From a virus (lineage: Duplodnaviria > Heunggongvirae > Uroviricota > Caudoviricetes): a stretch of DNA of 40,095 nucleotides. The DNA is taken from IMG/VR virus record IMGVR_UViG_2740892121_000006, positions 1-40,095 of that record; one strand, 5' to 3'. The position numbers were made by a program, and so were the translations under genes. Within the stretch, counting starts at the first letter, position 1. Each line of letters begins with the position of its first letter. Below, piece after piece: positions 5,717 to 35,071 of this stretch. The notes under the pieces were generated by a model that saw only the letters and a list, made by a program, of their open reading frames with translations, was not told where the DNA came from and ran no database searches.

Positions 5717-5733
5717 ATTACCTTTCAGGTAAT
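5717..5733. promoter_or_regulatory. 17-bp palindrome ATTACC-N5-GGTAAT (candidate repressor operator)
   Basis: ATTACCTTTCAGGTAAT, perfect 6-bp inverted arms; about 75 bp upstream of small ant-like gene. Confidence 0.5.
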
Positions 5734-5769
5734 TTGCAAAACGTGCTGGATAGCAAACAAATTATTTGC

Positions 5770-5789
5770 TACTGTATAAATATACAGTT
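5770..5789. promoter_or_regulatory. LexA box (SOS operator)
   Basis: TACTGTATAAATATACAGTT = CTGT-N8-ACAG with AT-rich core, 18/20 match to TACTGTATATATATACAGTA; ends 6 nt before the first ATG. Confidence 0.7.
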
Positions 5790-5809
5790 ATTGCATGGAG
5801 AAGATTAAG

Positions 5810-6067
5810 ATGCAGCAGTATCACTATCCACTGGAAGAGGGATTTACCGAAAGGATTCACACGCCGGGAGGCGTCAGGTCACTGGTGGAGGGATCGCACT
5901 TGATGAAATTACTCCGGGATCTCGATAAGGATGGATTTAATGTCGATGGCCCACTTGCCGAACTGACTGCACTGATTAACTACGTCACCAGCTCACAGAT
6001 GTCTATGCAGGATCTGCAAACACATCTCGACTATTGTGCCGAACAATTACGAAAGCAAACCACATAA
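5810..6067 (+). CDS. Small antirepressor-like protein (stand-alone copy of Ant C-terminal domain), LexA-controlled
   Basis: About 40 percent identity by eye to the C-terminal 65 aa of the Ant protein at 7534-8226; start at second ATG (SD GGAG 9 nt upstream); track start 5795 also possible. Confidence 0.55.
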   Translation: MQQYHYPLEEGFTERIHTPGGVRSLVEGSHLMKLLRDLDKDGFNVDGPLAELTALINYVTSSQMSMQDLQTHLDYCAEQLRKQTT

Positions 6068-6090
6068 AGAAAAGGCCGCAAGAGCGGCCA
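6068..6090. terminator. Hairpin terminator between convergent genes
   Basis: Stem GGCCGC / GCGGCC (6074-6089) with loop AAGA; A-run on plus side gives T-run for minus-strand transcript ending gene B. Confidence 0.5.
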
Positions 6091-6597
6091 TTAACAGTCG
6101 AAAAATTCTGGGTCCCACAAACTTGCATCGCGCGGCATGGATTCTAACTTTTTCAGCCGCAAAATTCTGTCACACTCGACAACTAATTTTTGCTTCTGCT
6201 CGTCAATTTCTACTGTCTTATGTGCTGGTTCATCCCAATAATCCAGAAGGAAGGCATGGCGTTCAGATGTGACCAGATAAATCACATACACGTCACTGGT
6301 TGGGATCTTTTTATGCTTGTTAGTGGTCTTGTCTTTCTTCCCAGACGCCCAGTTTTTCCAGCATTGTTCCGTACCGCTCTCACCAAACTTGTCAGTATAG
6401 TTTCCGATGTTTACATGAACGTGGCGTATGTGATATTCCAGCATCTCTTTCGGTGGATCCCGAAACAGAGTGTCCTTTCCGAAATCCTTATGATGACCGT
6501 AGCGCCAGTGATCTATGAACGCGTTTTTGATAGGTATTAGCTCAGGGTCCTTCCCAAAAATTCCAGGGTGAACCAACCCCTGGAATTTATTCGGCAT
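6091..6597 (-). CDS. Hypothetical protein (gene B of two-gene moron operon)
   Basis: 168 aa from ATG 6597 (SD AGGAG), start overlaps last codons of gene A by 11 nt; His-rich segments GHHKDFGKD, HIRHVHV; no family recognised; track ORF extends to 6660. Confidence 0.5.
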   Translation of the reverse strand: MPNKFQGLVHPGIFGKDPELIPIKNAFIDHWRYGHHKDFGKDTLFRDPPKEMLEYHIRHVHVNIGNYTDKFGESGTEQCWKNWASGKKDKTTNKHKKIPTSDVYVIYLVTSERHAFLLDYWDEPAHKTVEIDEQKQKLVVECDRILRLKKLESMPRDASLWDPEFFDC

Positions 6598-7114
6598 CGT
6601 CGTAGAGCTCCTGAGCCATATCTTCAGCAGTGCGTGCAAACATCCTGCGCGAGATTGCATGGGATTTCTCTACGGACATCTTTGGGACCTCATGCATAAC
6701 AAGTTGATGAGTTTTCTCATCAACTTGAAGTGGCTTGTATAAACGTTGCCACCTTTCGTTAATTTTATCCTTAAAGCCAGCGAAACCACTTTCCTGACTC
6801 TTGTATCCAAAATGAGATAAAGCCAAATTCCTTTCCATTTCATTCCTAATGTACTCAGCAAGGTTGCAGTGGAATACTTCCCCTTGTTTTTTTAGGCATG
6901 CTTCATGGTCTGTAACACTGTGACGGCTCTCATATAAGTAAATGCGATAGGAATTTTTATTATCCTCTTCTTCATAATTTCTAATCGCATCAGCAGTTGC
7001 CATAGCTGCAGCGTAAGCGGCTGCTTCAATCACCATCTCTTGCTCTTTTTCTTTTTCAGGCCTTTTCAAGGCAAAGCGTCTATGCCTCATCGCTGTAACT
7101 CTCTTCGTGTTCAT
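6587..7114 (-). CDS. Hypothetical protein (gene A of two-gene moron operon)
   Basis: 175 aa from ATG 7114 (G-rich SD); basic N-terminus, largely helical, acidic C-terminus; no family recognised; track start TTG 7126. Confidence 0.5.
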   Translation of the reverse strand: MNTKRVTAMRHRRFALKRPEKEKEQEMVIEAAAYAAAMATADAIRNYEEEDNKNSYRIYLYESRHSVTDHEACLKKQGEVFHCNLAEYIRNEMERNLALSHFGYKSQESGFAGFKDKINERWQRLYKPLQVDEKTHQLVMHEVPKMSVEKSHAISRRMFARTAEDMAQELYDDAE

Positions 7115-7125
7115 GGGCACCCCCA

Positions 7126-7142
7126 ACTACCTTTAGGGTAAA
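7126..7142. promoter_or_regulatory. Degenerate copy of the 17-bp palindrome
   Basis: ACTACCTTTAGGGTAAA, one mismatch per arm; overlaps the translation-initiation region of gene A. Confidence 0.35.
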
Positions 7143-7250
7143 CATTCTATCGAAAGTATACGCTCACTGGCAAAAAAATAGGCAGGTATTTTCTGAAATG
7201 GGATCAATCAAACCACATAGGGTTGAAATAACGTGAGTTATGCATTTATT

Positions 7251-7267
7251 ATTACCTTTACGGTAAA
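7251..7267. promoter_or_regulatory. 17-bp palindrome (candidate operator) upstream of ant
   Basis: ATTACCTTTACGGTAAA; preceded by TTGAAA-N17-TTATTA promoter-like hexamers on plus strand. Confidence 0.45.
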
Positions 7268-7359
7268 TTTACATTGCACTCCTCTTGTGCCATAGTAATC
7301 AGGCACTGGCAAAATCCAGTGCCGGGATTGGTCTCCCGGATTACTACAGAGGCACATAT

Positions 7360-7379
7360 GCCGCATAAGCGGTTTTTTT
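7360..7379 (+). terminator. Intrinsic terminator-like hairpin plus U-run inside the ant leader
   Basis: GCCGC-ATAA-GCGG followed by TTTTTTT; two further hairpins just upstream (7302-7323, 7322-7339). Confidence 0.4.
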
Positions 7380-7533
7380 ATGTGTAAAGCGCACCTATTC
7401 TATGGTGGGCTGTGTGGGGGCACCGAAAGGTGCGCCGGGTTCCTTTGTAGCCGGTAAGACCAACTCTGCACAGTTCACCACCATCTGATTGGTCTCAGCG
7501 GTGGTGATTAACCTAACTACAAAGGTGATCGCC

Positions 7534-8226
7534 ATGAATACCAAACCTTCCATCTTTTCCTTTGAGTCATCCTGCCAGATCCGTATGTTCATGATTGACG
7601 GAGAACCTTGGTTTGTCACCAAAGATGTGTGCAATGCTTTGAATATTGATGTTACACAAGCGAGAAAACTTGATAAAAAAGGCTGGAACAAAAAGGGGCT
7701 GTATTCAATACAGACCCCTGGTGGAATACAAGAACTATCCATCGTTTCAGAATCAGGTCTCTACATCCTTATTCTGCGTTGCAAAGAGGCAATGACAGAG
7801 GGAACGAGAGCATTCAGATTTCTTGAATGGGTTACAGGTGAGGTTCTTCCTCAGATCCGCCGCACCGGAAGTTACATTAAAAACTCGCTCCCGCAGGAAG
7901 AACGCATAAAGATGGTTGCCGACCAGGTAGCCAACGCCACAGCATCAGCAGTGATGCAGGCAATGAAGATAGAGAACAAAACCTACAGTGCCCCACTGAA
8001 GCCCGGCTACCGCAGCCTGATTCACTCGCCGTCTGGTGTTCTCGGCCTGACGGAGAACTCACTGCTGATGAATCTGCTGAACCAGTTACAGGACGACGGG
8101 CACGACGTATCGGGCGCGGCGGCGGAGCTGACCACCATGTTCTGCTACATCGTTGGTGTGAGCAAATGCCTGCGTGATATCCAGACGCACGCGGAGTACA
8201 TCAACGACAAAGCAGGGTTCTTCTGA
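7534..8226 (+). CDS. Antirepressor (Bro-N/AntA-type N-terminal domain plus C-terminal domain)
   Basis: N-terminus IRMFMIDGEPWFVTKDVCNALNI...GLYILILR typical of Bro-N/Ant domain; ATG 7534 with SD AAAGGTGA; track ORF begins at TTG 7489. Confidence 0.7.
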   Translation: MNTKPSIFSFESSCQIRMFMIDGEPWFVTKDVCNALNIDVTQARKLDKKGWNKKGLYSIQTPGGIQELSIVSESGLYILILRCKEAMTEGTRAFRFLEWVTGEVLPQIRRTGSYIKNSLPQEERIKMVADQVANATASAVMQAMKIENKTYSAPLKPGYRSLIHSPSGVLGLTENSLLMNLLNQLQDDGHDVSGAAAELTTMFCYIVGVSKCLRDIQTHAEYINDKAGFF

Positions 8227-8309
8227 CGGAGGCGGCACAGGGATGTGCCTACAATTATCAATAATTGTTTACACTCGTTGCAGTTAAAAGCATTATACTC
8301 ATGTTTAAA

Positions 8310-8326
8310 ATTACCCGATTGGTAAA
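8310..8326. promoter_or_regulatory. 17-bp palindrome (candidate operator)
   Basis: ATTACCCGATTGGTAAA just downstream of a TATACT -10-like hexamer and 20 nt before ATG 8347. Confidence 0.45.
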
Positions 8327-8346: not shown

Positions 8347-8673
8347 ATGAGCAGAAGATATGTCAAGGAGCTGGCTATAGAGTCTGGCACCCCTTTGGGT
8401 ATCGTTCCTGGCTCCAACTATGCCAAGGCTTTAAACCGAGACTCTGTCGTCAAAGTTATATCAAGAGACATGAATATGGTCGGAGACGATCTCAGACGGT
8501 CAGAAAATCGTGTTTATGCTGAATATATAGTAAAGAACGGAAAAAAAATTGCAGCGCCTGCTGGCGGAAAATGGGCAATAGTGACAGGGAAAAACTCAAA
8601 TGCAAGAGGAAAACCAGAAGCTAAAGGAATGTCCTTCGACAAATATGCAAAAATCTATTGGGCAACCAAGTGA
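8347..8673 (+). CDS. Hypothetical protein (moron operon, first gene)
   Basis: 108 aa from ATG 8347 with SD GAGGT; basic, no recognised motif. Confidence 0.45.
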   Translation: MSRRYVKELAIESGTPLGIVPGSNYAKALNRDSVVKVISRDMNMVGDDLRRSENRVYAEYIVKNGKKIAAPAGGKWAIVTGKNSNARGKPEAKGMSFDKYAKIYWATK

Positions 8674-9426: not shown

Positions 9427-9438
9427 GTGACATGTCAC
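9427..9438. repeat. 12-bp perfect palindrome GTGACATGTCAC (copy 1)
   Basis: Identical 12-mer recurs at 29024-29035; related GGCATGTCAC at about 26759. Confidence 0.5.
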
Positions 9439-10342: not shown

Positions 10343-13300
10343 CTATTTCATCTGCTCTTCAACTTTATTTAGTAACGGTGATATCGCCCACAGGTTCTGA
10401 AAAGGTAGCATTTTACGGACCGCGTGGGTTTGCTGGCTGTCAAATTCTCCGTTAAGTACACCATTCGCAACCGTCGCGGCATCACCGCCAAGATCAAAGG
10501 TAGGACCAAGTAAAGCACCAATAGCATTACGACTCTGAAACCTTGATACCGGAGGCGCACCAAACATCGCGCCAAGACCAAACCTACCGCCGCTTATGTT
10601 CTCAACGGTATTCAGCGGCTCAGAGAGCCAGCCAAGCATTCCGCCCCGGTCGATCCCCTCTTTCACAAGGTTATTCCAGCTGTAGTCGATATCGCGACCG
10701 CTTAACTTCTGTTTCATCATATAGACCATTGAGCCAAGCGCAATCGTGCCAAGCGCACCAAGATAGAATGCAGCATCGCCCTGCTGGATACCAGATACTA
10801 GCACCCTGTTATGCTGTGCGAAGATAAACGTTTTGAACTGCGTGATCATCTTCCAGCCTTCTTTACTAAAAAACAGCGGTGTATCACCTACGCCAGGCGT
10901 TACAATCACTGAGTCTACATCTTTCAGCACTGCAGACTGGAAAATCTCTCTAGCGAAACGGTCATCCCACAGATGACTATGCCCGGTTAACAGCCCGTCC
11001 ATATCCTCTCCGTGCTTCCCGAATTGCTCCCCGATTCGGCGCAGAACATCTTCATTGATGCCGACCTGTGCCATCTTCCGCATTTCACTTTTGGAGAGCG
11101 TGCCACCAGCAGAAACTTGGCGAGCCGCGTCAAGTATCCTCGACTGCACTATCATCCCGGACCATGATTTAAGTGCGCTGTTCCACTGATTCATCAGCGT
11201 CCAGTTACCGAATTTCTGCGTCATCCAGTTCAGACCTCGCTCAGCGGCGCTTCTCCGGCTATAGGGGTCAGTAAGATCCGCTATAGCCTTTGTACGCGTA
11301 GACAGGACATAATCAAGCCCAACGGCCATTTCTCGCAAATCCCTGGTTGCAATTTTCACTGAGTCCATATTTTTAAGCATGCTTACCATTGGTCCGAGAG
11401 ATTTTCTCAGGCCATGCTGCATCATCGGTCGCATCAGATCAGTTGCAGCGGAGACAGTCATTCCACCAAGCAAACGGAGGAAGTTAATATTCCTAGCAAC
11501 TCGCCCGGCACGAACAAAGAAACTGCGTGGATCTTGAGGTGCACCGTAAGTACCAAGCAGTCGATCACGCATAGCCGTAATATCCCTAATATCAGCCTCC
11601 CGTTGCTTCTCAAGAACTGCACGTCGTTTAGGTGTTTTAGCCTCTTTTATTAGCCGGGTATATTCCTCACTAACCTGACGGATTTGCTCCCCCATATCTT
11701 TACGGCCAAACTGCGCAGTCAGCTCAATTTCTGGTGCCACCTGCCGGAGATAACTTTCCATGATGTAGTTAACATCTGATTCAAGAAAATCTTCTATACG
11801 CTCATCAGGAATAAGCAGCGTTCTGCTTTTAGTGAAACCAGCCCGACCAACGAGTTTCTCTGGGATAATATCGGCTGGTACAAGCCCGGAAGGTGCGCCT
11901 ATTATTTTATTCACGATCTCGTCAGCAGCGTCCTCTGCTTCCTCTCGGGATAGAGGCTCCATCTGCTTCAGTGCTCGTTCGCGGCTTGCATTCAGCCTTG
12001 TGGTTGAATTTGCCCGTTTTTGCAGTCGGCGAAGCTCAGAACGATATTTCCGTGGATTATCCAGCAACTCCATATGGCGCTGATAGACAGGAAGCTCACT
12101 CTTTGCCTGCGCTATATCATCAAGGCGTGTTTTAAGGTCAGAGCTTTCTTTCATCATTCTTGCCTGAAGTTTTTCTGATGAAGTCTCGGCCAACTCTTTT
12201 TCTATTCTTGTAAGACGCGCCTGTGTGTCAGTCTCCTGAGATATAAGCTTATTTCGTTTATCCAGTTCTTCCATGAGTAGAATTTTTTTACCAGACCATT
12301 TCTCCGCTTCAGCGATTTCACTAGCGAGAGCATCAGCGCGCGGTGCCGATTCCTCTGCAGTTTTTAGCAATGAATTTATCCTTTCAATTCGCTGACCTGC
12401 TTTGTCAGCACCTTTGGCACTAATCCCTTGTATCCAGTTGGCAATTCGCCCTCTGAATTCAGTGCGGTCGGAAAGTATCTTATCGAACTTATAAATGCGG
12501 GGAAGATAACTTTTCGCCGTCACGACATCGATATCCTCAGGAAGGATCCCCAGTTCCTGCATACGGGCTTTTGTGGTCTCGAAAATGGGGCGGATTCTGG
12601 CGGCTGCTTGTGAAACCTCAGGAATATCACTCTGATCACCACGGCGCATAGCCATGCCAACAGCTTCATTGAAATCAATAAAGTTCATCCTCTTCACGCC
12701 GCGGGCGCTAACAGATTTGCTGTACTGCTGGTAAGCATCACGAGTGGCTTCCATCTGCTTATAAAGCATGGCGTCGTATTGCTTAATCTTAGTCTCGACT
12801 GCCGTAAACGTAGCCAACCCCTCATCATTTTTGGCGAAGAAATAGTTATTTTCGGCAAGCTGCTGGTTAATCTGACGGGAGACAAGAGATGGTGATTGAG
12901 CCAAGCGGCCAGCAGGAGTGACACTCAACGTTTTGTTAGCAAGTCCAAGTCCAGCGAGCTGTTCCTGATCGAGTGTGGTATTGAAAACCTGAGCTGCACC
13001 AATGCTTTGAGGAGAATCCATACCTCGCAAATGATTACCTACTGAGTTAACCACTGCCTCGCGCGCGCTAGGTCCAGCAAGTAGCTGTGCACCAGCACCA
13101 AGGATCCCACCAACGAGAGCATCAACAACAACGTTCGATACGCTCTCCATCGGTGAGCGAGCTTCCTGAGTGGCCTGTAATGCGGCTTCTGATACTCCCC
13201 CACCAGCAGCATTCGCCAGGGCAAAACGCCCTGCCGTCTCAGCAATACTTCCTCCACGCGCTACCGCCCCTACAGGGATAAACATTGCAGCCACATTAAC

Positions 13301-25784: not shown

Positions 25785-25801
25785 ATTACCTTTCAGGTAA
25801 C
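25785..25801. promoter_or_regulatory. 17-bp palindrome (candidate operator) with TTGACA hexamer upstream
   Basis: ATTACCTTTCAGGTAAC, identical in 16/17 positions including spacer to the site at 5717; TTGACA at 25764-25769; half-site ATTACC at 25723. Confidence 0.45.
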
Positions 25802-26199: not shown

Positions 26200-26242
26200 G
26201 AATCACGCCTAAGGACCGTGATGCCAGAAGTTCCAGGGGCTT

Positions 26243-26286
26243 GGCGGTGATGGTTTCCCTTGAAGGACTATCACCGCCCTTTTTAC
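26243..26286 (+). terminator. Rho-independent terminator after tRNA
   Basis: About 10-bp stem GGCGGTGATGG / CTATCACCGCC followed by CTTTTT. Confidence 0.65.
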
Positions 26287-26362
26287 AGCAGGACGCCATT
26301 GCGATGACTTCATGCTGTAAACCAGTACAGCCACGGAAGGCATAACTCATTGCTTCCAGTTC

Positions 26363-26386
26363 GCCCGGTTCGCCGGGCATTTTTTT
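26363..26386 (+). terminator. Terminator-like hairpin abutting the RBS of gene 26398
   Basis: GCCCGG-TTCG-CCGGGC then ATTTTTTT, 11 nt before SD AAGGTGAG. Confidence 0.5.
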
Positions 26387-26397
26387 AAGGTGAGATT

Positions 26398-26754
26398 ATG
26401 AACGACCAGCAAATCGAAAAAGAAATCGTTGAGAAAGGCAAAACCGCTCCGCGAGTTACGCCTCAATATATCGAAAGCATCATTCTTGAAGAGCATTTCT
26501 TTACTGCTTATGACGGCATTCGTGCTGCCAATATGGGCGTTGGCGATTCATGGACAGCGCATAAATCTACAGACCTCCTGACTTTCTGCGTATTGGTACT
26601 GAAGAATGGCTTCACCGTCACCGGAGAGAGTGCCTGTGCAAGTCCGGAAAATTTTGATGCAGAAATTGGTCGGAAGATTGCCCGGCAGAATGCTGTAAAC
26701 AAAATCTGGATGCTCGAAGGTTACTTGCTGAAGCAGAAGTTAAGCGAGCAATAA
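26398..26754 (+). CDS. Conserved small phage protein of unknown function (moron)
   Basis: 118 aa, strong SD AAGGTGAG; opposite strand to flanking terminase/portal genes. Confidence 0.5.
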   Translation: MNDQQIEKEIVEKGKTAPRVTPQYIESIILEEHFFTAYDGIRAANMGVGDSWTAHKSTDLLTFCVLVLKNGFTVTGESACASPENFDAEIGRKIARQNAVNKIWMLEGYLLKQKLSEQ

Positions 26755-26844
26755 CACCGTGGCATGTCACAAACAGCAAGCCTATGAACTGGCTTTGTTT
26801 TATCCTCACCAGAAGATATCAACGACATTATCCCCACCAGCGAA

Positions 26845-28320: not shown

Positions 28321-28910
28321 TGATTACCATCCTGACGTTCTTTGAGTCGCTTCCTGGCTGCTGCTATGCGATCAGCAATTGTCACATTCACATTAACATC
28401 CAGGCGTTCTTTGAACGCATTGACGTCGACGTGCTTACCAATCAGTTCGAGGTTCTTCACCTTGTCAGGCCATTTAATTTTTTTGAGAATTGTCTCTATC
28501 GAATCCTCGTTCATGTTCATGATGGTCGATGACAGATCAAAGCCGCTAAGCGTAGTGCGCCAGATTTTCGGCCACTCTCGGATTGGCTTAAGGCTCCCAT
28601 CGTCGTTGAGGATATCAATCACGTCCATCTGGTCGATCTCCACCAGGCGCATGAGAACGTAATCAGCACTGACGCGCATTCGTTTGTTGCGCTCCTCCAT
28701 CAACTCGGCAATCCGTTTTTGAATGCGTTCATCGCGCATCATGACACTGGCTTTAACTGCCGCTGTATTTGGGGAGAATCCTGCGTTAATCGCTGCCTGA
28801 GTCTGGTTTTCAGGCGTTTTGATGTATGACTGACAATAAGCCTCCTGCATTGCTGTTAGTGGCTTAAATTGCGTTGATTTGCGTTTATAGGTTTTAGGTT
28901 CAGCAGGCAT
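28317..28910 (-). CDS. Terminase small subunit
   Basis: LTAMQEAYCQSYIKTPENQTQAAINAGFSPNTAAVKAS matches the terminase small subunit HTH pattern; ATG 28910 with SD GGTGG; track TTG 28991 extension contains a terminator hairpin. Confidence 0.75.
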   Translation of the reverse strand: MPAEPKTYKRKSTQFKPLTAMQEAYCQSYIKTPENQTQAAINAGFSPNTAAVKASVMMRDERIQKRIAELMEERNKRMRVSADYVLMRLVEIDQMDVIDILNDDGSLKPIREWPKIWRTTLSGFDLSSTIMNMNEDSIETILKKIKWPDKVKNLELIGKHVDVNAFKERLDVNVNVTIADRIAAARKRLKERQDGNQ

Positions 28911-28955
28911 CATAACCACCGTGGTAATAGTTACCGTTGTGGTAATAGTACCATG

Positions 28956-29023: not shown

Positions 29024-29035
29024 GTGACATGTCAC
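29024..29035. repeat. 12-bp perfect palindrome GTGACATGTCAC (copy 2)
   Basis: Overlaps stop codon of gene 29032-29379, about 110 bp upstream of terS start. Confidence 0.5.
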
Positions 29036-29379
29036 ACTATTAATTTCGTTTCATGCCAGCCTTTAGTCACCCAGCATTGCGAGTCACCATTACACGGGCA
29101 TGAATTAACGGGAACTCTCTCGCCGCACTTACCGCAAAGTTTTCTGCTGATCGATTTTATACGCCCGCGCACACGTGCATCATCCTGGCGGATCAGCAGC
29201 GCGATGTACTCGGCCATTTCATAGGGATCGCGACCAGGGCGCCGGGCGGCGCAGTTCCGCGCCAGCATTTCCTGCTCCTGCTTATCCAGCACCAGTTCAA
29301 TTTTGCGCTCACCGGCGGCGGACTGCCGAGCGCGCTGCGCGGCTTTGCGTTCTGCGGGGGATTTAGCCACGAATCGCAC
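29032..29379 (-). CDS. Basic protein with C-terminal Cys-rich zinc-ribbon-like motif; candidate regulator
   Basis: CGKCGERVPVNSCPCNGDSQC motif; Arg/Ala-rich helical N-terminus; last gene before terminator and terS; start GTG 29379 or 29370. Confidence 0.4.
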   Translation of the reverse strand: MRFVAKSPAERKAAQRARQSAAGERKIELVLDKQEQEMLARNCAARRPGRDPYEMAEYIALLIRQDDARVRGRIKSISRKLCGKCGERVPVNSCPCNGDSQCWVTKGWHETKLIV

Positions 29380-29485
29380 TCCACGCCAGATTGATTAATG
29401 ACTCCCAGGTAATATAAACCCGGATACCAGCAGCCAGGCCGAAACCAATCACCATGGCATAAAGCAGAGCGTTGCACTTGTTCAT
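29363..29485 (-). CDS. Unlisted small hydrophobic peptide (40 aa)
   Basis: MNKCNALLYAMVIGFGLAAGIRVYITWESLINLAWSAIRG; ATG overlaps upstream TGA (ATGA) and its end overlaps the next gene start; below the 60-aa cutoff of the ORF track. Confidence 0.3.
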   Translation of the reverse strand: MNKCNALLYAMVIGFGLAAGIRVYITWESLINLAWSAIRG

Positions 29486-30300
29486 CACTTCACCTCATGC
29501 GGCGATTCTGGTAGAAGCATCCAATTGATTACATCGCATTCAGGTATGCTGATATCATCACCAAGCCACCCTTGACCTTCAGACCAGCATTGCACGTAAT
29601 ACCCGTATTCTGTGTTCACTACGCACCACTGCGCGTCGTTCGGCATTCGCTCACTACAGCTTATCCAACCATCCGGAGTTCCCGGAGAATTGCCATTTAC
29701 CAAGTCAGCTCGAACATATAGCGTGTCATCATGGTGCTGATTGTGGCTGCACCACGTTAATTCGCTTAACTCGCCATCTTCTGGCCATACTCCAGCTGTT
29801 TGCAGCCAGATATGGGCTGGCGCATCCTGGCAAGGTGTATTAACTGGCAACTTGTAAGTTTGGCTTACAGGTTCGGCACCATGAAGCATGGCGCCGCTCC
29901 GCTCTATGCCATCCAGCGCGATTCGCAGTGCCTGAATTGTGGTAGAGCTATCGTTTGGGGCTATTCCATATCGCTCGAATACAGCTAAATGGTTGCGCAT
30001 AATCTCAGGCGTAAGCTCTTTGTAAGCATAAGCAAGAGGCTCTGATGCATTATCCAGCACAACCGACGCAGGCGCGGCAGCATAAACAGGAATAACGTCC
30101 GCTTGCTCTTTATTGCTTTCATCCGTTAAAGCCCAGAATAATTTCCCGGCCGGATGTTTGAAAATATAAGCAACTGGATCTGCTTCCAGCGATGCCAGTG
30201 CAATTTCATAAGCACGGCGCTCAATATTGTCTCGAACGTCCAAGCTGCCTATGCGCTCTTTGATTTCTTTAATCATTTCTTTGTCGGTTAAAGTTGTCAT
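29485..30300 (-). CDS. DUF551-like phage protein
   Basis: C-terminal Trp/Cys-rich module (PDGWISCSERMPNDAQWCVV...) recalled as DUF551-type; ATGA coupling with upstream gene. Confidence 0.45.
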   Translation of the reverse strand: MTTLTDKEMIKEIKERIGSLDVRDNIERRAYEIALASLEADPVAYIFKHPAGKLFWALTDESNKEQADVIPVYAAAPASVVLDNASEPLAYAYKELTPEIMRNHLAVFERYGIAPNDSSTTIQALRIALDGIERSGAMLHGAEPVSQTYKLPVNTPCQDAPAHIWLQTAGVWPEDGELSELTWCSHNQHHDDTLYVRADLVNGNSPGTPDGWISCSERMPNDAQWCVVNTEYGYYVQCWSEGQGWLGDDISIPECDVINWMLLPESPHEVK

Positions 30301-30812
30301 GCCGCGTTTCCTTCTTTCTTATTAACAATTACACCGTCATATATTTCATTAAGGTGTCCTCTTAGCTCCATGCGCCTTAATGCAGATAACATGTAATCGC
30401 ATTCAACCTGCTTATTCCCAGTAAATGGCTTATCGTCAGGATTACCCCAACAGCAATTCCCCTTGGGCCATCCATGTACTTTCCGTACTCTTCCGTTAAC
30501 AACGTGAAGTAATCCCCAGCCGGGAGGTAAATCCTCAACTGAAATAATTCCCGGCTCACTAATAAAGAATCGCCAGTCGCCCATTCCAAGAGACGGATTT
30601 TTACGGAAACGCTTTTTTCTATCTGCCAACAAGTCAGCACGAGAACACTTCGCCTCTATCAAGCATGATGCTGAATTTCTGAATCCCATAGCATCTGGCT
30701 GTTCTCCGGTACTGGTTACAGCTATAAAGCGGTCATGAAAGCAAACCTTGAACCCGTTGCGCTTAAGGAACTTGTACGCAATCTGACAGAGTTCGCGGTG
30801 TGTTAACGCCAT
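30297..30812 (-). CDS. Hypothetical protein, possible PD-(D/E)XK-type nuclease motif
   Basis: D...EAK arrangement (GEQPDAMGF...CLIEAKCS); SD GGAGAG upstream. Confidence 0.4.
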   Translation of the reverse strand: MALTHRELCQIAYKFLKRNGFKVCFHDRFIAVTSTGEQPDAMGFRNSASCLIEAKCSRADLLADRKKRFRKNPSLGMGDWRFFISEPGIISVEDLPPGWGLLHVVNGRVRKVHGWPKGNCCWGNPDDKPFTGNKQVECDYMLSALRRMELRGHLNEIYDGVIVNKKEGNAA

Positions 30813-30813
30813 C

Positions 30814-31026
30814 TCACTCTCCTTTAGTGCGCAGATAACAGTGGTTTTTCCAGCGGTTTTGCACCGCGCTACGCTTATCTTTGACTCCCTCTCTGGCTAT
30901 TCCAGAAAATGAGAACAACACCACACGGCGATTGCTAACTCTCAACCACTGGCTGGGGTAGCAAAGTCTGTATACACGGGAAATTAGCATCTTTGCTTTA
31001 CGATTGTTGGTTGCCATATCGTTCAT
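30814..31026 (-). CDS. Small basic hypothetical protein (70 aa)
   Basis: ORF directly upstream of and coupled to 30297-30812; weak coding character. Confidence 0.3.
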   Translation of the reverse strand: MNDMATNNRKAKMLISRVYRLCYPSQWLRVSNRRVVLFSFSGIAREGVKDKRSAVQNRWKNHCYLRTKGE

Positions 31027-31071
31027 CCTTTGATGCGAATGCCAGCGATAATTGAAGCCTGATAGCTAATT

Positions 31072-31523
31072 TTACTCACAGCCCCCCTGATAATTTCCCT
31101 GATAAAACGCCAGCACGCGCTGCATAACTTCGCTCTTCCTGCACTCGCAACAGATTATGTTCTGACGCCTGTCGTAGCGGCGTATTTCTCCGTCTGGTAA
31201 TGACCAGATAAGGTCAGGATCAACCACAACCGGTTTTTTCACCTTTTCCCTTGATAGTTTTTTGCGGGCGTTTTGCCAGTCTTTACGCGCCTGCTCAGAC
31301 GGGAATAATCCGTAGCCTGAATTGTATACATCACCACTGGCAACCAGCTCTCTGGCAAGAACGCTCAGCAGATATCTTGTCGCACCAGTTGCACTTCCAG
31401 TTGCGTTGCCAAATCGCTGATCAGCTTTGCCACACTGCGCATATCAACGGCACCACATTCTGCTTTCAGTTCCGAAGCCATCTCATGCCCGGCGGCAACT
31501 AACCCTTTGATATTACTTTCCAT
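31072..31523 (-). pseudogene. Apparent frameshifted gene (52-aa ORF followed by overlapping 124-codon frame)
   Basis: ATG 31523 with SD GAGGG gives 52 aa ending TGA 31365; a second protein-like frame runs 31443-31072 with no start codon until GTG 31242; no slippery heptamer seen. Confidence 0.35.
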
Positions 31524-31584
31524 CTTTACCCTCGCTTATCCACATAACTTATTGATTACATTGATAACTAAAAAGATCGTCGAT

Positions 31585-31929
31585 TCAGAACTCTTCGATT
31601 TTCCATCCGCCACCTGCTTTCTTTGGCTTAACAGTTACCCCGATGATTCGGAACGGATATTGATCTGCGGCGACTTTGGTTTTCACCCTGGCGTCGTCGG
31701 TCCAGAAACCTTTCACTTCGTGCAGTTCCATCTCTCCGGTGGCGAGCATCACAGCGAAATCTGGCGTATAGAACGTGTTATCAGCTAACCGCAGCTTGAT
31801 ACCCTCGAATCGATACCAGGCGATTTCCCCTGCACGTTTACGCAGCTCAAGGTGCTGGCAATACGCAGATTCTGTTTTGTTCATCTGGCCTGTTTTGAGT
31901 CGACCAAGAGCCTGTATCTGTTTTCTCAT
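31585..31929 (-). CDS. Small phage protein with PD-(D/E)XK-like motif (VRR-NUC/DUF1064-like)
   Basis: YTPDF...ELHEVKG resembles D..E.K nuclease core; SD AGGGG; palindrome site overlaps its RBS. Confidence 0.45.
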   Translation of the reverse strand: MRKQIQALGRLKTGQMNKTESAYCQHLELRKRAGEIAWYRFEGIKLRLADNTFYTPDFAVMLATGEMELHEVKGFWTDDARVKTKVAADQYPFRIIGVTVKPKKAGGGWKIEEF

Positions 31930-31931
31930 GA

Positions 31932-31948
31932 TTTACCCCTGAGGTAAT
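31932..31948. promoter_or_regulatory. 17-bp palindrome (candidate operator)
   Basis: TTTACCCCTGAGGTAAT; overlaps RBS of gene 31585-31929. Confidence 0.4.
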
Positions 31949-31993
31949 TAAAAACCACATAAGACACGAAATCAATAGAGTTTAGAATATTTT

Positions 31994-32010
31994 ATTACCA
32001 AACAGGTAAT
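31994..32010. promoter_or_regulatory. 17-bp palindrome (candidate operator)
   Basis: ATTACCAAACAGGTAAT, perfect arms; 62 bp from the previous site. Confidence 0.45.
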
Positions 32011-32046
32011 TATCAAGACGTAAAAAAATGCGCTATCGCGCTGGTA

Positions 32047-32823
32047 TTACTTGATAAATCCTGCCGCCTTTCCCCGCCTGTATTCCTCCATCAGCCACTG
32101 CGCCGGTGTTATTCCCCCCAGGGTGGCGGCGTTAGGCATACACCCGAAACTTCGCCCTGGTGGATGGTAAACGTCTCTCCCTGTGTCCGGAGGTGTACTC
32201 ATGGGTTCTGGCTTTGCCTGTATGCTGATCACCGGATCGGGTATCTGCTGTCCGGAAGCCACCTTTTTCGCCCAATCATCGAGCAGCCTGCGCGCGTGTT
32301 TCTCAACCTCAATCTCGCTAAGCTGGCGCTGATACATTGCACGGCGGGTATCACATACGACCCAGTACATAACCGGATGTCGCCACGGGAATCTTTCGGG
32401 ACCACCAGGATATAAACTTTTTTCCTTGCTGTACCGGTGAAACTCCGCCATCACATCGTCAATGGTGACGCCAAGAACCATCTTGCTGTCTTTGCACCAC
32501 TTGATGAATTGCCCAGGCGACGGCCAGAACGGAGATTCACTGGCGCGGGCGTGGCGCATACCAGCGTTAACCTGTTCCATTGTTGTGATCCCATTCTCCA
32601 GAAACGCAAGCATCCATTGCTTACGGAATTCATTAAGTTTGTTCTGCTCCCTTATGGTCGAAACGCTTGCAGGAAATGCAGCCTGTAACTGGACAAATAG
32701 TTCATTGAAAATTCTAGCAACCTGCTCCTTTTTGCCATTGCTGTCACGCCGCTCTTCATGCACAGCAACACCATGCTCACGTAAGCGATCGTACTCATTG
32801 AGAAGTTCTGGAGTTGATTTCAT
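32047..32823 (-). CDS. Replication protein P-like (DnaB helicase loader)
   Basis: Clear similarity to lambda P: FPAS..., QWxLAFxENGITTMEQVNAGMRxAR, PFxPSPGQFxxWC. Confidence 0.8.
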   Translation of the reverse strand: MKSTPELLNEYDRLREHGVAVHEERRDSNGKKEQVARIFNELFVQLQAAFPASVSTIREQNKLNEFRKQWMLAFLENGITTMEQVNAGMRHARASESPFWPSPGQFIKWCKDSKMVLGVTIDDVMAEFHRYSKEKSLYPGGPERFPWRHPVMYWVVCDTRRAMYQRQLSEIEVEKHARRLLDDWAKKVASGQQIPDPVISIQAKPEPMSTPPDTGRDVYHPPGRSFGCMPNAATLGGITPAQWLMEEYRRGKAAGFIK

Positions 32824-33625
32824 CCCACACCCCTTCTATCCAGTCAGTGTTATTCCAGTCAAGCTCATCGCTTTTCCCGGCGTTTTTTGATTTTCCCCTG
32901 ATATGATTTACGTGCCTGGCGAATTTTTGTTCCCACTGAACCTGCGTGAACACTTTGCCCTCAGCCATCCAGTAATCCCGGAATGCAGCAAGTTCAGCAG
33001 GTGTAAATTCCGGTTCCGGCAGGGCCGTTCCCCACAGCGCAGCACGCCGTCGAAAATCCGGCGACGGATGCCAGCCATCGGTCATCGGAAATTTCCCGAT
33101 GGGTTCACTCAGGCCATCCAGAAATTCAGGTTCAGCCACCTGCAACGGCATACCGTTCGCTTCACTGGTCGGAGCACCCTCGCGCACGTGCGCTATGTGT
33201 GGGGTTTTATATATATCTTCCTCTTCCTCTTCCTCTGGTAACTCCTTTTGTAACGCTGTTGGCGTTACTTTTTGCGTTACTCGTTTTCGATGCTCTGCCA
33301 CTCTTCTATTCGTAAGTGCACGTTTTTTCGATGATTCTCCATTATGTCGCTCAAAGTTTGGAAGAATTAGTTTGCCGTCATGATAAGCAAGCCATCCGAC
33401 GCTAATGAGGGCGTCAGCAAATCCTGTAATAAAAGCGAGTCTATCAAGTACTCCTTTTGTAACGCTGCCAGCGTTACCGTCTATTGTTTGCTGGTCAGCC
33501 CATGCCCATATACGAACCAGCTTTCCAAGAACAGCATCTGGATCAATACCCAGAATTTCTGCTATCTGAAAAATTTCAGGTTTATCAGGAGTGATAACTT
33601 CAACCTTAATCCAGCTGCTTGCCAT
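32795..33625 (-). CDS. Replication initiation / replisome organiser protein (lambda O functional analogue, not O-like in sequence)
   Basis: Immediately upstream of and overlapping P-like gene; acidic Glu-rich linker; ATG 33625 with SD GAGGGG. Confidence 0.55.
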   Translation of the reverse strand: MASSWIKVEVITPDKPEIFQIAEILGIDPDAVLGKLVRIWAWADQQTIDGNAGSVTKGVLDRLAFITGFADALISVGWLAYHDGKLILPNFERHNGESSKKRALTNRRVAEHRKRVTQKVTPTALQKELPEEEEEEDIYKTPHIAHVREGAPTSEANGMPLQVAEPEFLDGLSEPIGKFPMTDGWHPSPDFRRRAALWGTALPEPEFTPAELAAFRDYWMAEGKVFTQVQWEQKFARHVNHIRGKSKNAGKSDELDWNNTDWIEGVWDEINSRTSQ

Positions 33626-33818
33626 AGGTTTCCCCTCTTGCACTCTTTAGTGCACAAGCAAATTCATTACGATGGCGGTTGGCGCTATTCATTGCACATT
33701 CAACACATGTTCCGTTCAGAACATACCTTTCAGAGAGATGGCCGTGACGGCACCGCTTTCCTGTGAAATAGCGATTTAACCCGGCTTTTGCGGCCTCCAT
33801 TCTGGTTACTATCTTCAA
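33606..33818 (-). CDS. Small zinc-ribbon protein (cII position)
   Basis: CxxH...CxxC arrangement (KRCRHGH...GTCVECA); TTG start with SD GGGG or internal ATG 33800. Confidence 0.4.
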   Translation of the reverse strand: MKIVTRMEAAKAGLNRYFTGKRCRHGHLSERYVLNGTCVECAMNSANRHRNEFACALKSARGETYGKQLD

Positions 33819-33895
33819 TTTTTCCGCCCCTTTTTGTTATTGATATTGGCTATTTTGCACAATTGGAAAATTTGATCAACCAGATTTGGTTTTTT

Positions 33896-33912
33896 ATTAC
33901 CTTTGAGGTACG
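33896..33912. promoter_or_regulatory. 17-bp palindrome (candidate operator), weaker right arm
   Basis: ATTACCTTTGAGGTACG between terminator after cro and next gene. Confidence 0.35.
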
Positions 33913-33917
33913 AATAG

Positions 33918-33944
33918 ATATGAAAAGACCGCCGGGTGGCGGTC
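33918..33944 (-). terminator. tR1-like rho-independent terminator immediately after cro-like gene
   Basis: Minus strand hairpin GACCGCC-ACCC-GGCGGTC followed by TTTTCATAT. Confidence 0.6.
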
Positions 33945-33966
33945 TACAGAGGGTTGTAGCTGGATA

Positions 33967-34197
33967 TCATGAGTAGAAGAAGTATGCCAGTTCTGCTTTT
34001 GAGCGCAGCCATTGTCTTGTTTTACAGGCTTTAAAAAGCCCATTCATCAATACTTTACCTGGCATTTTGCGCTTACCTGTTAAGTGAGTCTGGATATAGT
34101 GACTCGTCGTTCCGGCTTCCTGTGCGAAGGCTTCACGCTCATCCGGAGTAAGTGCAAGCCAGTGCTTTTTGAAATCGAAATGTCCGTTATCGCTCAT
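33967..34197 (-). CDS. Cro-like DNA-binding protein
   Basis: 76 aa, HTH-like segment, divergent from repressor gene across an operator-bearing 154-bp intergenic region. Confidence 0.6.
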   Translation of the reverse strand: MSDNGHFDFKKHWLALTPDEREAFAQEAGTTSHYIQTHLTGKRKMPGKVLMNGLFKACKTRQWLRSKAELAYFFYS

Positions 34198-34243
34198 AGC
34201 TATTGCCTGATATTTATTTCAGATAATAAATATTCACCCATAA

Positions 34244-34297
34244 GGTAACAAAAATCAAGGATAGTTACCCATGAGGTGCATTTACCTGTTGGGTAAT
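34244..34297. promoter_or_regulatory. Operator cluster in the cI-cro intergenic region
   Basis: TTTACCTGTTGGGTAAT (34281-34297) plus inverted half-sites GGTAAC-N14-GTTACC (34244-34269) overlapping a minus-strand TTGATT-N17-GAATAT promoter-like element. Confidence 0.5.
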
Positions 34298-34351
34298 ATT
34301 GCTTTAAATTGAATCATCTACTGATTCATATATGAGGCGATTTTCCAGAAA

Positions 34352-34936
34352 ATGAAAAGTATCCAGGACGTCCGCAGGCAAAATCTCAACGACTTGATCG
34401 ACCGTGAATTCAATGGTGTTCAGACGCGGATGGCAGAAAAACTTGGAACTCAGGCAAATCTGGTAAACCGCTGGGCTCTTGGCAAGAAGGTTATCGGCGA
34501 CCAGGTTGCGCGAAAAATTGAAGCTGCCGCCAATAAACCACGTAACTGGCTTGATATCGATCGCTCGCTTTCTCAGGAAGGTTTTCAGCCTGTCGGCCCA
34601 AGCGACATTGGTCAGCTGGCGGCTCACAACCTGGAACGCTGGATGAGCGAAAGCCGCGACCTTTCAACTCAGGGAAAACTTCACCGCGCATCCGGCGTCG
34701 CCCAGGTGACAATCAGCCGCCTGTTAAACAATGAGGTCAGTGTTTCCATTTCCACCCTGGAGAATGTTGCATCAGCATTCGGGCGTCACGGCTATGAATT
34801 ACTGATTCACCCGCACGACCCTGCGACCATCAACTATGACCGCTCGCGCTACGCATTGTTACCCGAAACCGAGAAAGCAAAGATCGAAAGTTACATTGAA
34901 TTTGTCATCAACCAGAACGAAAAAAACAAACAATAA
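34352..34936 (+). CDS. CI-like repressor with two tandem HTH (XRE-type) domains, no S24 peptidase domain
   Basis: HTH-like segments at residues about 25-65 and 105-150; no Ala-Gly/Ser-Lys protease signature; divergent from cro-like gene. Confidence 0.65.
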   Translation: MKSIQDVRRQNLNDLIDREFNGVQTRMAEKLGTQANLVNRWALGKKVIGDQVARKIEAAANKPRNWLDIDRSLSQEGFQPVGPSDIGQLAAHNLERWMSESRDLSTQGKLHRASGVAQVTISRLLNNEVSVSISTLENVASAFGRHGYELLIHPHDPATINYDRSRYALLPETEKAKIESYIEFVINQNEKNKQ

Positions 34937-34956
34937 AATCATATTTTTCAGTAAGT

Positions 34957-34980
34957 AAGCCGCCTTCTGGCGGCTTTTTT
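34957..34980 (+). terminator. Rho-independent terminator after repressor gene
   Basis: AAGCCGCC-TTCT-GGCGGCTT followed by TTTT. Confidence 0.7.
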
Positions 34981-34992
34981 ATTGCCTATACT

Positions 34993-35009
34993 ATTACCTA
35001 ATGGGTAAT
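34993..35009. promoter_or_regulatory. 17-bp palindrome (candidate operator) upstream of -35
   Basis: ATTACCTAATGGGTAAT, perfect arms. Confidence 0.5.
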
Positions 35010-35027
35010 TTTTTTAACTCATATCTA

Positions 35028-35056
35028 TTGACATCAAACCAAATACGCATAATTAT
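35028..35056 (+). promoter_or_regulatory. PL-like sigma70 promoter
   Basis: TTGACA (35028-35033), 17-bp spacer, AATTAT (35051-35056); flanked by two palindrome sites. Confidence 0.5.
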
Positions 35057-35071
35057 TACCTCAACGGTAAC
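35055..35071. promoter_or_regulatory. 17-bp palindrome (candidate operator) overlapping -10/+1
   Basis: ATTACCTCAACGGTAAC. Confidence 0.5.

Follow-up and report, generated by a model that had tools for sequence, protein, structure and literature searches.

A dispersed 17-bp palindrome as the probable operator of the lysogeny repressor Rep in a Uetakevirus prophage

Introduction

A 17-bp palindrome, ATTACC-N5-GGTAAT, is scattered over a tailed-phage genome of 40,095 nt (IMG/VR record IMGVR_UViG_2740892121_000006; this whole stretch is called the window below), which raises the question of what reads it and which genes are controlled through it. The window is a phiV10/ε15-like (Uetakevirus) prophage integrated at guaA of E. 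coli. An initial annotation listed eleven sites and took a repressor operator as the simplest reading, extending it to moron promoters and leaving room for another factor or for RNA hairpins. Judged from sequence comparison, the palindrome is very probably the operator of Rep, the lysogeny repressor that the prophage encodes, and in Salmonella phage ε15 these dispersed sites already bear an annotation as repressor sites.

A conserved, strongly over-represented palindrome

The palindrome is real, and its frequency is far above chance. The core TTACC-N5-GGTAA is present in 10 exact copies against about 0.04 expected, and 15 sites carry it with at most one mismatch (0.74 expected). The pattern WTTACC-N5-GGTAMH yields 17 strand matches at 10 distinct sites, where shuffled sequence predicts 0.03. 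In the motif search of prophage versus host DNA, set beforehand as a check, not a single exact TTACC-N5-GGTAA was found in the 216.8 kb of E. coli host DNA scanned. All 13 strong sites (10 exact and three near-exact) are non-coding, although non-coding DNA makes up 8.5% of the prophage (P about 1e-14). The consensus reads wATTACC-ww-W-ww-GGTAATw; site scores in bits derive from a matrix of 57 sites from six related genomes, a set in which the spacer centre is A or T in 112 of 114 half-oriented sites.

The repeat claimed initially is therefore confirmed, with some amendments to its inventory. Nine of the eleven listed sites match the proposed pattern exactly (5717, 7251, 8310, 25785, 31932, 31994, 34281, 34993, and 35055), while 7126 (ACTACC) and 33896 (ending in GGTACG) are each one base off and still score 15.7 and 16.8 bits. 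Sites 5717 and 25785 share 16 of 17 positions including the spacer, as had been noticed, and their flanks are unrelated. The list lacked an exact site at 28930-28946 and its weak neighbour at 28913-28929, and the “inverted half-sites” at 34244/34264 exist but are in fact the inner halves of full-length degenerate operators (34233-34249 and 34264-34280).

In all six Uetakevirus genomes examined, this is the most over-represented 5+5 palindrome, with 8-11 copies each. The sites occupy ten positional classes in common, and both these classes and the fixed spacings (62; 17 plus 30/31; 18 bp) recur in ε15, SPC32H, phiV10, Tyrion, BUCT711, and five further prophages from Superficieibacter, Erwinia, Klebsiella, and Citrobacter. 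The features of the window are collected in Table 1.

Table 1. Operator sites and associated genes, RNAs, and control elements in the window.
Feature	Position	Strand	Remarks
Operator ATTACCTTTCAGGTAAT	5717..5733		Tailspike/ant intergenic gap; exact, 27.3 bits
LexA box TACTGTATAAATATACAGTT	5770..5789	+	Precedes small antirepressor gene
Small antirepressor Ant, 85 aa	5810..6067	+	phrog_450; 89% identical to SPC32H Ant
One-mismatch operator ACTACCTTTAGGGTAAA	7126..7142		15.7 bits; one base downstream of -10
Operator ATTACCTTTACGGTAAA	7251..7267		Exact; fused to -10 of TTGAAA-18-TATTAT (7223-7252, plus strand)
isrK-type RNA	7303-7379	+	Rfam 74.7 bits
C4 antisense RNA	7398-7485	+	Rfam 78.6 bits
Second antirepressor, Bro-N plus C-terminal Ant-like domain	7534..8226	+	Pfam Bro-N; phrog_130, phrog_450
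Operator ATTACCCGATTGGTAAA	8310..8326		Exact; at or just after promoter-like 8268-8296, 8284-8311
Operator ATTACCTTTCAGGTAAC	25785..25801		Exact; upstream of gp3/portal head operon (minus strand)
Two adjacent operators	28913..28946		28930-28946 exact, 28913-28929 weak; directly upstream of small-terminase gene
DUF1064 pair, downstream operator	31932..31948		Exact; overlaps the gene's ribosome-binding site and a TTTAAT -10-like element
DUF1064 pair, upstream operator	31994..32010		Fills spacer of minus-strand TTGATA-16-TAAAAT (32016-31989)
One-mismatch operator ATTACCTTTGAGGTACG	33896..33912		16.8 bits; just downstream (minus strand) of terminator after cro-like gene
Cro-like protein, 76 aa	33967..34197	-	phrog_35, transcriptional repressor
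OR region, three operators	34233..34297		Spacings 31 + 17 bp
Rep, lysogeny repressor, 194 aa	34352..34936	+	PDB 5D50 homology
PL upstream operator	34993..35009		About 20 bp upstream of -35
PL downstream operator	35055..35071		Fused to -10 of TTGACA-17-AATTAT (35028-35056)

Position of the sites relative to promoters and genes

The motif flanks or overlaps the divergent promoters of rep and the cro-like gene as well as the PL-like promoter, and annotated ε15 sites stand at equal positions, so that the repressor-operator reading holds. Within OR, the operator 34233-34249 (16.2 bits) sits between the -35 and the -10 of the Cro-side promoter TTGTTA-17-TATTAT. Its neighbour 34264-34280 is degenerate, and the exact 34281-34297 shares bases with a -10-like TAATAT on the side of rep. 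The same layout is found in ε15, where we located the OR sites at 33341, 33358, and 33388 (unannotated in the ε15 record). The 31 + 17 bp spacing recurs in 10 prophages besides this one. The 62-bp spacing of the PL pair is kept in relatives, and its ε15 equivalents are annotated as repressor sites. The terminator behind the cro-like gene spans 33945-33926; the nearby operator at 33896 occupies a conserved position in relatives, about 337-341 bp from OR.

Outside the immunity region, the small Ant gene is divergent from the tailspike gene and lies behind a perfect LexA box that is conserved in all six genomes. The operator at 5717 abuts the ant-side TTGCAA and is about 50 bp from a conserved GGTAAT-TAGAAT on the tailspike side; its position is kept in all six genomes and corresponds to the annotated ε15 repressor site 19895-19911. 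The promoter at 7223-7252 drives isrK, C4, and the gene of a second antirepressor, which shares 42% identity with the small Ant across 74 aa. This module is found together with its operator in phiV10, TL-2011b, ZX5, Tyrion, and a Klebsiella prophage. The operator at 7126 belongs to a promoter TTGCCA-18-TAGAAT (7173-7144, minus strand) upstream of a two-gene cassette (6091-7114) for which EC.W1-9 was the only phage record found. The operator at 8310 precedes ORF 8347-8673 and a DUF2335 gene, and BUCT711 has a site upstream of its own DUF2335 gene. The minus-strand DUF1064 gene is preceded by two operators 62 bp apart, and the ε15 equivalent of the upstream one (35906-35922) is annotated. The idea that a single regulator acts beyond the immunity region is supported, with the second antirepressor gene among its putative targets.

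Operators are also present upstream of the terminase, head, and tailspike/lysis operons. The position of 25785 is kept in all six genomes (ε15 annotated site 2931-2947). The small-terminase pair lies between a terminator (28982-28965) and the ATG at 28910, with the weak member covering the ribosome-binding site; its 18-bp arrangement is common to ε15 (annotated site 12-27), phiV10, and Tyrion. With sites before the late operons too, almost all transcription units carry an operator of their own. The initial remark that two sites overlap ribosome-binding sites was roughly right, the two being 31932 and 28913.

The description of the sites as promoter-proximal applies to six of them, which overlap strong σ70-like promoters in a consensus promoter scan. 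At the PL-like, DUF1064, isrK-C4-Bro-Ant, and 8310 promoters, the first two operator bases are at the same time the last two of the -10 hexamer. The scan does not bear the description out for the late-operon sites 28930, 25785, and 5717, where it found no good σ70 promoter overlapping the operator. At two of these three, the best conserved -10-like element lies about 70 bp downstream of the operator centre. Simple occlusion does not explain repression at the late-operon sites.

Rep as the probable reader of the motif

Homology shows Rep to be of the SPC32H type, predicted to consist of an N-terminal helix-turn-helix domain, a central domain for dimerisation, and a C-terminal one for tetramerisation, and to have no self-cleaving protease domain. 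Residues 1-190 align with the crystallised SPC32H Rep (PDB 5D50; E = 4e-42), and the C-terminal half matches the dimerisation and tetramerisation domains of that protein; Pfam detected only helix-turn-helix domains and no Peptidase_S24 domain. Rep is 100% identical to phiV10 Rep (gp40) and ZX5 Rep (ORF21) and 42% identical to ε15 Rep, and its recognition helix, N36-L-V-N-R-W41, is invariant wherever the motif is retained despite overall identities of 42-44%. Motif and helix occur together in at least seven enterobacterial genera. In a Providencia relative, the helix is altered to PNVISRY, the motif is gone, and other palindromes stand at homologous places; this covariation is partial, as there are two different new palindromes, one of which (TAACC) is one base from TTACC. 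The cI protein of Pseudomonas siphophage PseuP_224 has a homologous N-terminal and a different C-terminal domain, and its gene has TTACC-N4-GGTAA sites on both sides.

Overexpression of the identical ZX5 Rep lowers endolysin and holin transcripts by 99.97-99.99% (PMC9782041). SPC32H Rep is cited in PMC9638917 and PMC9986798 as a tetramer on palindromic sites that is disassembled by an Ant tetramer. The small Cro-like protein encoded divergently from Rep probably shares the operators.

Other readings of the palindrome

The Cro-like protein might even be the main reader in place of Rep, the dispersed sites then serving to turn down transcription in the lytic phase. In favour of this, CI and Cro use common operators in classical switches, the protein belongs to a PHROG family of transcriptional repressors, and its identity across genera is 58-84%, the helix-turn-helix AGTTSHYIQxHLT being invariant. 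It is conserved at least as well as Rep, so conservation alone cannot tell which of the two reads the motif. However, the TTACC half-site tracks the Rep-type N-terminal domain into PseuP_224, the ε15 annotators credited the sites to the repressor, and Rep overexpression alone silences the lysis genes. We therefore consider a leading role of the Cro-like protein unlikely; it would in any case be compatible with binding by Rep too. It is very improbable that the motif is bound by a different factor (a host protein, the AlpA-/PerC-like regulators, or a phage methyltransferase) or is a by-product of duplicated promoter modules. The phage does encode AlpA-like, PerC-like, and MT-A70 proteins, and IHF sites were predicted beside three operators in ε15, but the site flanks are unrelated, which speaks against duplication, and the absence of the motif from 217 kb of host DNA leaves no signal of a host regulon. 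Moreover, methylation targets are not restricted to intergenic DNA, and it is rep itself that is bracketed by the densest cluster.

The suggestion that the palindromes work as RNA hairpins, masking ribosome-binding sites or acting as processing signals, is hardly credible and was rejected, even though 31932 and 28913 overlap Shine-Dalgarno regions and RNase III sites were predicted nearby in ε15. The predicted stems are weak (-1.1 to -5.2 kcal/mol), and sites 34993, 31994, and 34233 lie upstream of the -35 or in promoter spacers, where they would go untranscribed from those promoters. It is the half-site sequence itself that is conserved, beyond mere complementarity. None of the conserved deviations (TCACC, GTACC, GGTAT) is met by a compensating change in the opposite arm, and the A/T spacer centre is a DNA-shape rather than a loop feature.

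Comparison with known repressor systems

The closest parallel is ε15 (AY150271.2; Kropinski et al. 2007), whose record holds seven “protein_bind: repressor / lysogeny” features, all TTACC-N5-GGTAA, which may be predictions. Palindrome and 62-bp pair spacing are the same. Sites are shared upstream of the small terminase, gp3/portal, and the gene that follows the replication module, as well as in the gp19 (ant)/tailspike gap and the PL cluster. Unlike ε15, the prophage has extra sites at 7126, 7251, and 8310 (the second antirepressor module and two further promoters), and it lacks a lysis-operon site because its lysis genes directly follow the tailspike gene. With the SPC32H Rep-Ant switch (PDB 5D50, 5D4Z) the prophage shares a Rep homologue, Ant, a LexA box before ant, and the lack of an autocleavage domain, while its Bro-N::Ant-like fusion, which follows isrK and C4 RNAs and has a Rep operator, is additional.

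As in the lambda CI/Cro OR-OL system, the divergent repressor and cro-like genes are separated by an OR with three sites, a PL operator set stands on the far side of the repressor gene, and cooperative multi-site binding is likely; in contrast to lambda, the prophage has no RecA-dependent self-cleavage, is predicted to rely on an antirepressor for induction, and carries operators outside the immunity region as well. The gp71 stoperators of mycobacteriophages L5/L1 are likewise numerous repressor sites in short intergenic gaps, some downstream of promoters, but they are asymmetric, orientation-dependent 13-mers, whereas the prophage sites are two-fold symmetric and mostly overlap promoters. The C1 repressor of phage P1 reportedly has dispersed operators too, including that of the immI c4-icd-ant operon, in an account attributed to Lobocka et al. 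2004. Common to both are one immunity repressor, many scattered operons, and an antirepressor module with a C4-type antisense RNA; P1, however, is a plasmid prophage whose operators are 17-mers without symmetry and whose C1 has no relationship to Rep.

A proposed model for the lysogenic switch

For the moron promoters proposed initially, the outlying sites provide no support, as they stand at core positions conserved in the genus: the small terminase, the gp3/portal head operon, the ant/tailspike gap, the isrK-C4-Bro-Ant module, and the DUF2335 gene, the cassette 6091-7114 being the exception. At the true cargo-like loci, tRNA-Arg and ORF 26398-26754, no operator was found. The units under putative Rep control are conserved phage operons. 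By definition, a promoter that the lysogeny repressor keeps closed is silent in the lysogen, and an operator at +1 predicts such silence.

In the lysogen, Rep tetramers would sit on the operators, a pair of N-terminal domains contacting each palindrome and one tetramer holding up to two, which fits the OR triplet as well as the rigidly kept pairs 62 bp (about 6 helical turns) apart. At the four -10-fused promoters, and at the Cro-side promoter with its spacer site, bound Rep would keep RNA polymerase out. The SPC32H Rep is said, in work ascribed to Kim & Ryu 2013 and Kim et al. 2016, to be inactivated by a small LexA-controlled antirepressor. By analogy, DNA damage would remove LexA from the box before the small antirepressor gene, and Ant would strip Rep from the DNA. 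This may in turn free the promoter of the Bro-N::Ant-like antirepressor and so create positive feedback.

Gene Order of the Prophage

The window is a podovirus prophage of the phiV10/ε15 type (genus Uetakevirus) from an E. coli host. Over the immunity region it is 99.9% identical to a prophage beside guaA in strain MCJCHV-1, and it is 98.5% identical to phage vB_EcoP_ZX5. The interval separating the large terminase gene from the head operon holds a tRNA-Arg gene (anticodon TCT, 26123-26199, plus strand) and a 118-aa ORF (26398-26754, plus strand); this locus is cargo-like, stands on the strand opposite to the terminase and head genes, and has no Rep site nearby.

Features of the prophage and of related genomes (window coordinates unless a genome is named)
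Feature	Position	Strand	Remark
Host genes yfgH and yfgI	1-1071		
Lysis genes	1266-3078	minus	
Tailspike gene	3151-5613	minus	
Variable region	5.8-10.3 kb		
TTGCCA-18-TAGAAT	7173-7144	minus	operator 7126-7142 begins one base past -10
TTGAAA-18-TATTAT	7223-7252	plus	operator 7251-7267 fused to -10, PL-like fashion
isrK-type RNA	7303-7379	plus	Rfam 74.7 bits
C4 antisense RNA	7398-7485	plus	Rfam 78.6 bits
TTAAAA-16-TAAAAT	8284-8311	plus	operator 8310-8326 fused to -10, PL-like fashion
Tail, head and terminase genes	10343-28910	minus	
Early-right operon	29032-34197	minus	
TTGATA-16-TAAAAT	32016-31989	minus	operator 31994-32010 in spacer
TTGTTA-17-TATTAT (Cro side)	34251-34223	minus	operator 34233-34249 in spacer
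rep	34352-34936	plus	
TTGACA-17-AATTAT (PL-like)	35028-35056	plus	operator 35055-35071 begins in -10; 34993-35009 lies 62 bp upstream
Early-left operon	35090-38841	plus	
Integrase gene	38845-40095	minus	
Site class 1			two sites, 18 bp apart, adjoining the start of the small-terminase gene
Site class 2			upstream of gp3/portal
Site class 3			ant/tailspike gap
Site class 4			second-antirepressor region
Site class 5			ahead of the lysis operon, in genomes whose conversion genes part it from the tailspike gene
Site class 6			about 50 bp upstream of int
Site class 7			62-bp pair at PL; Salmonella, Citrobacter and Klebsiella types add a third site 74-76 bp on
Site class 8			OR triplet, spacings 17 and 30/31 bp
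Site class 9			single site directly past the terminator after the cro-like gene
Site class 10			second 62-bp pair, past the replication genes
Palindromes, Providencia prophage (L019)	1674, 1692, 3905, 4656, 4729, 4900		
GTGACATGTCAC, phiV10 (L002)	2262, 19493		
GTGACATGTCAC, ε15 (L003)	2142, 19517, 39612		
GTGACATGTCAC, SPC32H (L005)	2145, 19634, 38629		
GTGACATGTCAC, Tyrion (L007)	2702, 20377		
GTGACATGTCAC, BUCT711 (L008)	431, 18526, 26462		copy 26462 inside a gene

A Dispersed Palindrome Confined to Intergenic DNA

The initial annotation described a dispersed palindrome, ATTACC-N5-GGTAAT, and its non-random character is borne out: the pattern then used gives 10 distinct sites against 0.03 expected strand matches, and the 10-base core with at most one mismatch gives 15 sites in the window against 0.74 expected. 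When all 5+5 palindromes with spacers of 0-12 bases were counted without bias, TTACC-N5-GGTAA came out on top in the window (10 copies against 0.04 expected). A site matrix built on 57 sites from six genomes (the window, phiV10, ε15, SPC32H, Tyrion, and BUCT711) yields the consensus wATTACC-ww-W-ww-GGTAATw, with A or T as the central spacer base in 112 of 114 oriented sites. Thirteen window sites score at least 15 bits (5717, 7126, 7251, 8310, 25785, 28930, 31932, 31994, 33896, 34233, 34281, 34993, and 35055), and the matrix also picks up 28913 as a weak partner site. Site 5486 (8.5 bits), inside the tailspike gene, is probably a chance match, about one per window being expected at that threshold. 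All 13 strong sites fall in non-coding DNA, which makes up 8.5% of the prophage (P about 1e-14).

Within 216.8 kb of host chromosome there was no exact site and only one match of at least 12 bits, and thus the possibility raised at the outset, that the motif is equally frequent in host DNA, falls away. Most of the sites listed initially fit the pattern given for them, but 7126 and 33896 are each one base off, 28930 and 28913 had been missed, and the supposed half-sites at 34244 and 34264 are parts of two degenerate full operators (34233-34249 and 34264-34280).

Conservation across the Genus

The motif also ranks first among the palindromes of phiV10 (8 copies), ε15 (11), SPC32H (10), the Enterobacter phage Tyrion (9), and the Klebsiella phage BUCT711 (9), and when related genomes are compared, ten positional classes account for the sites. 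The int-proximal site, TATACCTTTAAGGTAAT, is found at 28758 of the MCJCHV-1 locus (L001), about 43 bp past window position 40095 and upstream of the integrase start, and all five reference phages keep it in that position. When one genome per species was scanned with a Rep alignment, five further prophages with identical layout and spacings came up, from Superficieibacter, Erwinia, Klebsiella, and two Citrobacter species. The GenBank record of ε15 carries seven dispersed features labeled "protein_bind, repressor, lysogeny", and all seven are this palindrome; the phiV10 and ZX5 records have no operator annotated. A search of published text for the genus and phage names together with "operator" brought up the ZX5 paper alone, which defines no operator (PMC9782041). 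The dispersed palindrome is, then, a genus-wide property, and its reading as an operator has already been made for ε15.

A second genus-wide repeat is the perfect palindrome GTGACATGTCAC, present in the window at 9427-9438 and 29024-29035 and annotated in none of the records. It stands nearly always at operon 3′ ends, past the last tail gene and past the large terminase gene, and also at the end of the early-right operon, immediately ahead of the terminator preceding terS. The ε15 genes gp18 and gp49 each take their stop codon from the TGA within this palindrome.

The Probable Reader of the Motif

The Rep of the window is 100% identical to the phiV10 and ZX5 repressors and is a clear homologue of the SPC32H Rep of solved structure (PDB 5D50; E = 4e-42); a LexA-like cleavage domain is lacking. 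When the identical Rep of ZX5 was overexpressed, free phage disappeared and endolysin and holin transcripts fell by over 99.9% (PMC9782041). Between the types from E. coli, Enterobacter, Klebsiella, and Salmonella, overall Rep identity is only 42-78%, yet the segment N36-L-V-N-R-W41 of the N-terminal helix-turn-helix is invariant among them and matches the invariant half-site. Every member of the genus keeps both helix and motif.

Two out-groups tie the half-site to the Rep-type N-terminal domain. In the Pseudomonas siphophage PseuP_224, the N-terminal domain of CI is homologous to that of Rep and the rest of the protein differs, with a lambda-like, S24-type C-terminal domain; TTACC-N4-GGTAA flanks its cI gene on both sides (19922, 19961, 20797, and 20823 of L013), that is, the half-site is the same but the spacer is one base shorter than in Uetakevirus. 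The Rep of a Providencia alcalifaciens prophage (34% identity) has a changed recognition helix, PNVISRY; exact TTACC-N5-GGTAA sites are absent from this prophage, and the palindromes TTAACC-N5-GGTTAA and ATAAAC-N5-GTTTAT replace the motif at the homologous PL, OR, and -2.3 kb positions. Providencia alone differs in this way, and the covariation there is partial.

The initial annotation had also allowed for RNA hairpins. The stems are weak, however, some sites occupy positions that are not transcribed, and conservation is of the half-site sequence itself, beyond pairing, with departures from the consensus left uncompensated; this reading is therefore rejected. Duplication of promoter modules is discarded because the site flanks are unrelated. 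Host-factor sites and methylation targets do not fit the absence of the motif from host DNA, its intergenic restriction, and, again, the unrelated flanks. Strong conservation is seen for the Cro-like protein too; as in other switches, it probably uses the sites of Rep as well, which is compatible with the repressor–operator reading. Comparative evidence and indirect functional evidence give that reading good support.

Operators at Early Promoters and Late Operons

Promoter-like sites were found by a consensus scan and read against the sequence. In the DUF1064 region, TTGATT-17-TTTAAT with operator 31932-31948 fused to its -10 was recognized by eye; since the scan rule rejects this promoter, we only infer that it repeats the PL design exactly.

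At the late operons, no σ70 promoter after the terS and gp3 operators passes the scan. The two terminase operators lie past the terminator at 28982-28965 and extend right up to the start codon (ATG, 28910); the scan finds no promoter in this interval. Upstream of gp3, about 95 bp from operator to start codon (25696-25784, minus strand; e.g., ATATGTGGTTAAATTGGTAATAATTTAA) are nearly invariant in an alignment of E. coli, Salmonella, Enterobacter, and Klebsiella phages, whereas upstream of the operator the sequences cannot be aligned. Within the 95 bp are an extended -10-like TGGTTAAAT and a half-site, GGTAAT, whose center is exactly 62 bp from that of the operator; the conserved block may represent a late promoter of unusual type or else a structured leader. 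The tailspike/ant gap holds an invariant GGTAAT-TAGAAT about 50 bp from the operator, and on the ant side TTGCAA abuts the operator. Possible modes of action for Rep at late sites are looping to the half-site, a transcription roadblock, or control of the divergent ant promoter.

Antirepressors and Induction

The prophage has two antirepressor paralogues. Ant (85 aa, 5810-6067, plus strand) is of the small SPC32H type, being 89% identical to SPC32H Ant, and a perfect LexA box, TACTGTATAAATATACAGTT (5770-5789), stands ahead of its gene; the box is kept in all six genomes. The other is the 230-aa Bro-N protein (7534-8226, plus strand), whose residues 149-222 are 42% identical to Ant, and which looks like a Bro-N::Ant fusion. 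A Rep-controlled promoter (7223-7252) drives the isrK-type RNA, then the C4 RNA, then the Bro-N gene, an order that resembles the immI module of phage P1. It can be proposed that release of LexA would allow Ant synthesis, Ant would take Rep off the DNA, and the second antirepressor would then be expressed, forming a feed-forward loop.

The module and its operator are common to phiV10, TL-2011b, ZX5, Tyrion, and a Klebsiella prophage. On comparative grounds, it belongs to the genus backbone and is probably not cargo. The "moron regulon" framing proposed initially is not supported.

A two-gene cassette (6091-7114, minus strand; PHROG families 9503 and 1651) carries a one-mismatch operator and a strong promoter-like site of its own, TTGCCA-18-TAGAAT; among phage records it was found in EC.W1-9 only. 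A defence-system identity was considered for the genes behind 7126 and 8310 and set aside, as PADLOC matches were sub-threshold only (for the cassette, to cyclase and Csx1 models).

Operator Spacing and a Possible Circuit

Paired operators are 62 or 63 bp apart in 22 of 22 pairs examined, and the sequence between them diverges freely. SPC32H Rep is described in secondary sources as a tetramer on palindromic DNA, with each DNA-binding pair coming from different dimers (PMC9638917). Its p53-like C-terminal tetramerization domain is said to hold two domain pairs at a distance of about 100 Å, in the manner of loop-forming regulators, and the way in which this repressor family represses "has not been extensively characterized" (PMC9986798). 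The invariance of 62/63 bp fits one Rep tetramer that would bridge two operators on the same helix face. The strict pairing matches the tetrameric architecture of the crystallized SPC32H repressor and suggests DNA looping that is testable.

A wider, "flat" circuit can be drawn, although we consider it rather unlikely as a whole. One repressor, Rep, would act directly on all transcription units, both early and late, to silence them, its tetramer bridging operator pairs at the constant spacing of 62 bp (six turns). In the case of the late head and tailspike promoters, a full operator about 70 bp upstream would be bridged to the conserved GGTAAT half-site at the -10 region. The second antirepressor, Rep-repressed and C4-gated, would make the switch irreversible once the LexA-controlled Ant has fired.

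The operator layout is wired as would be expected for a temperate phage and opens no new question; what interest remains concerns the geometry of looping and the working of the late-operon sites. For phiV10/ZX5-type prophages, common at guaA in extraintestinal pathogenic E. coli, it provides a complete, testable operator map, fuller than earlier ones.
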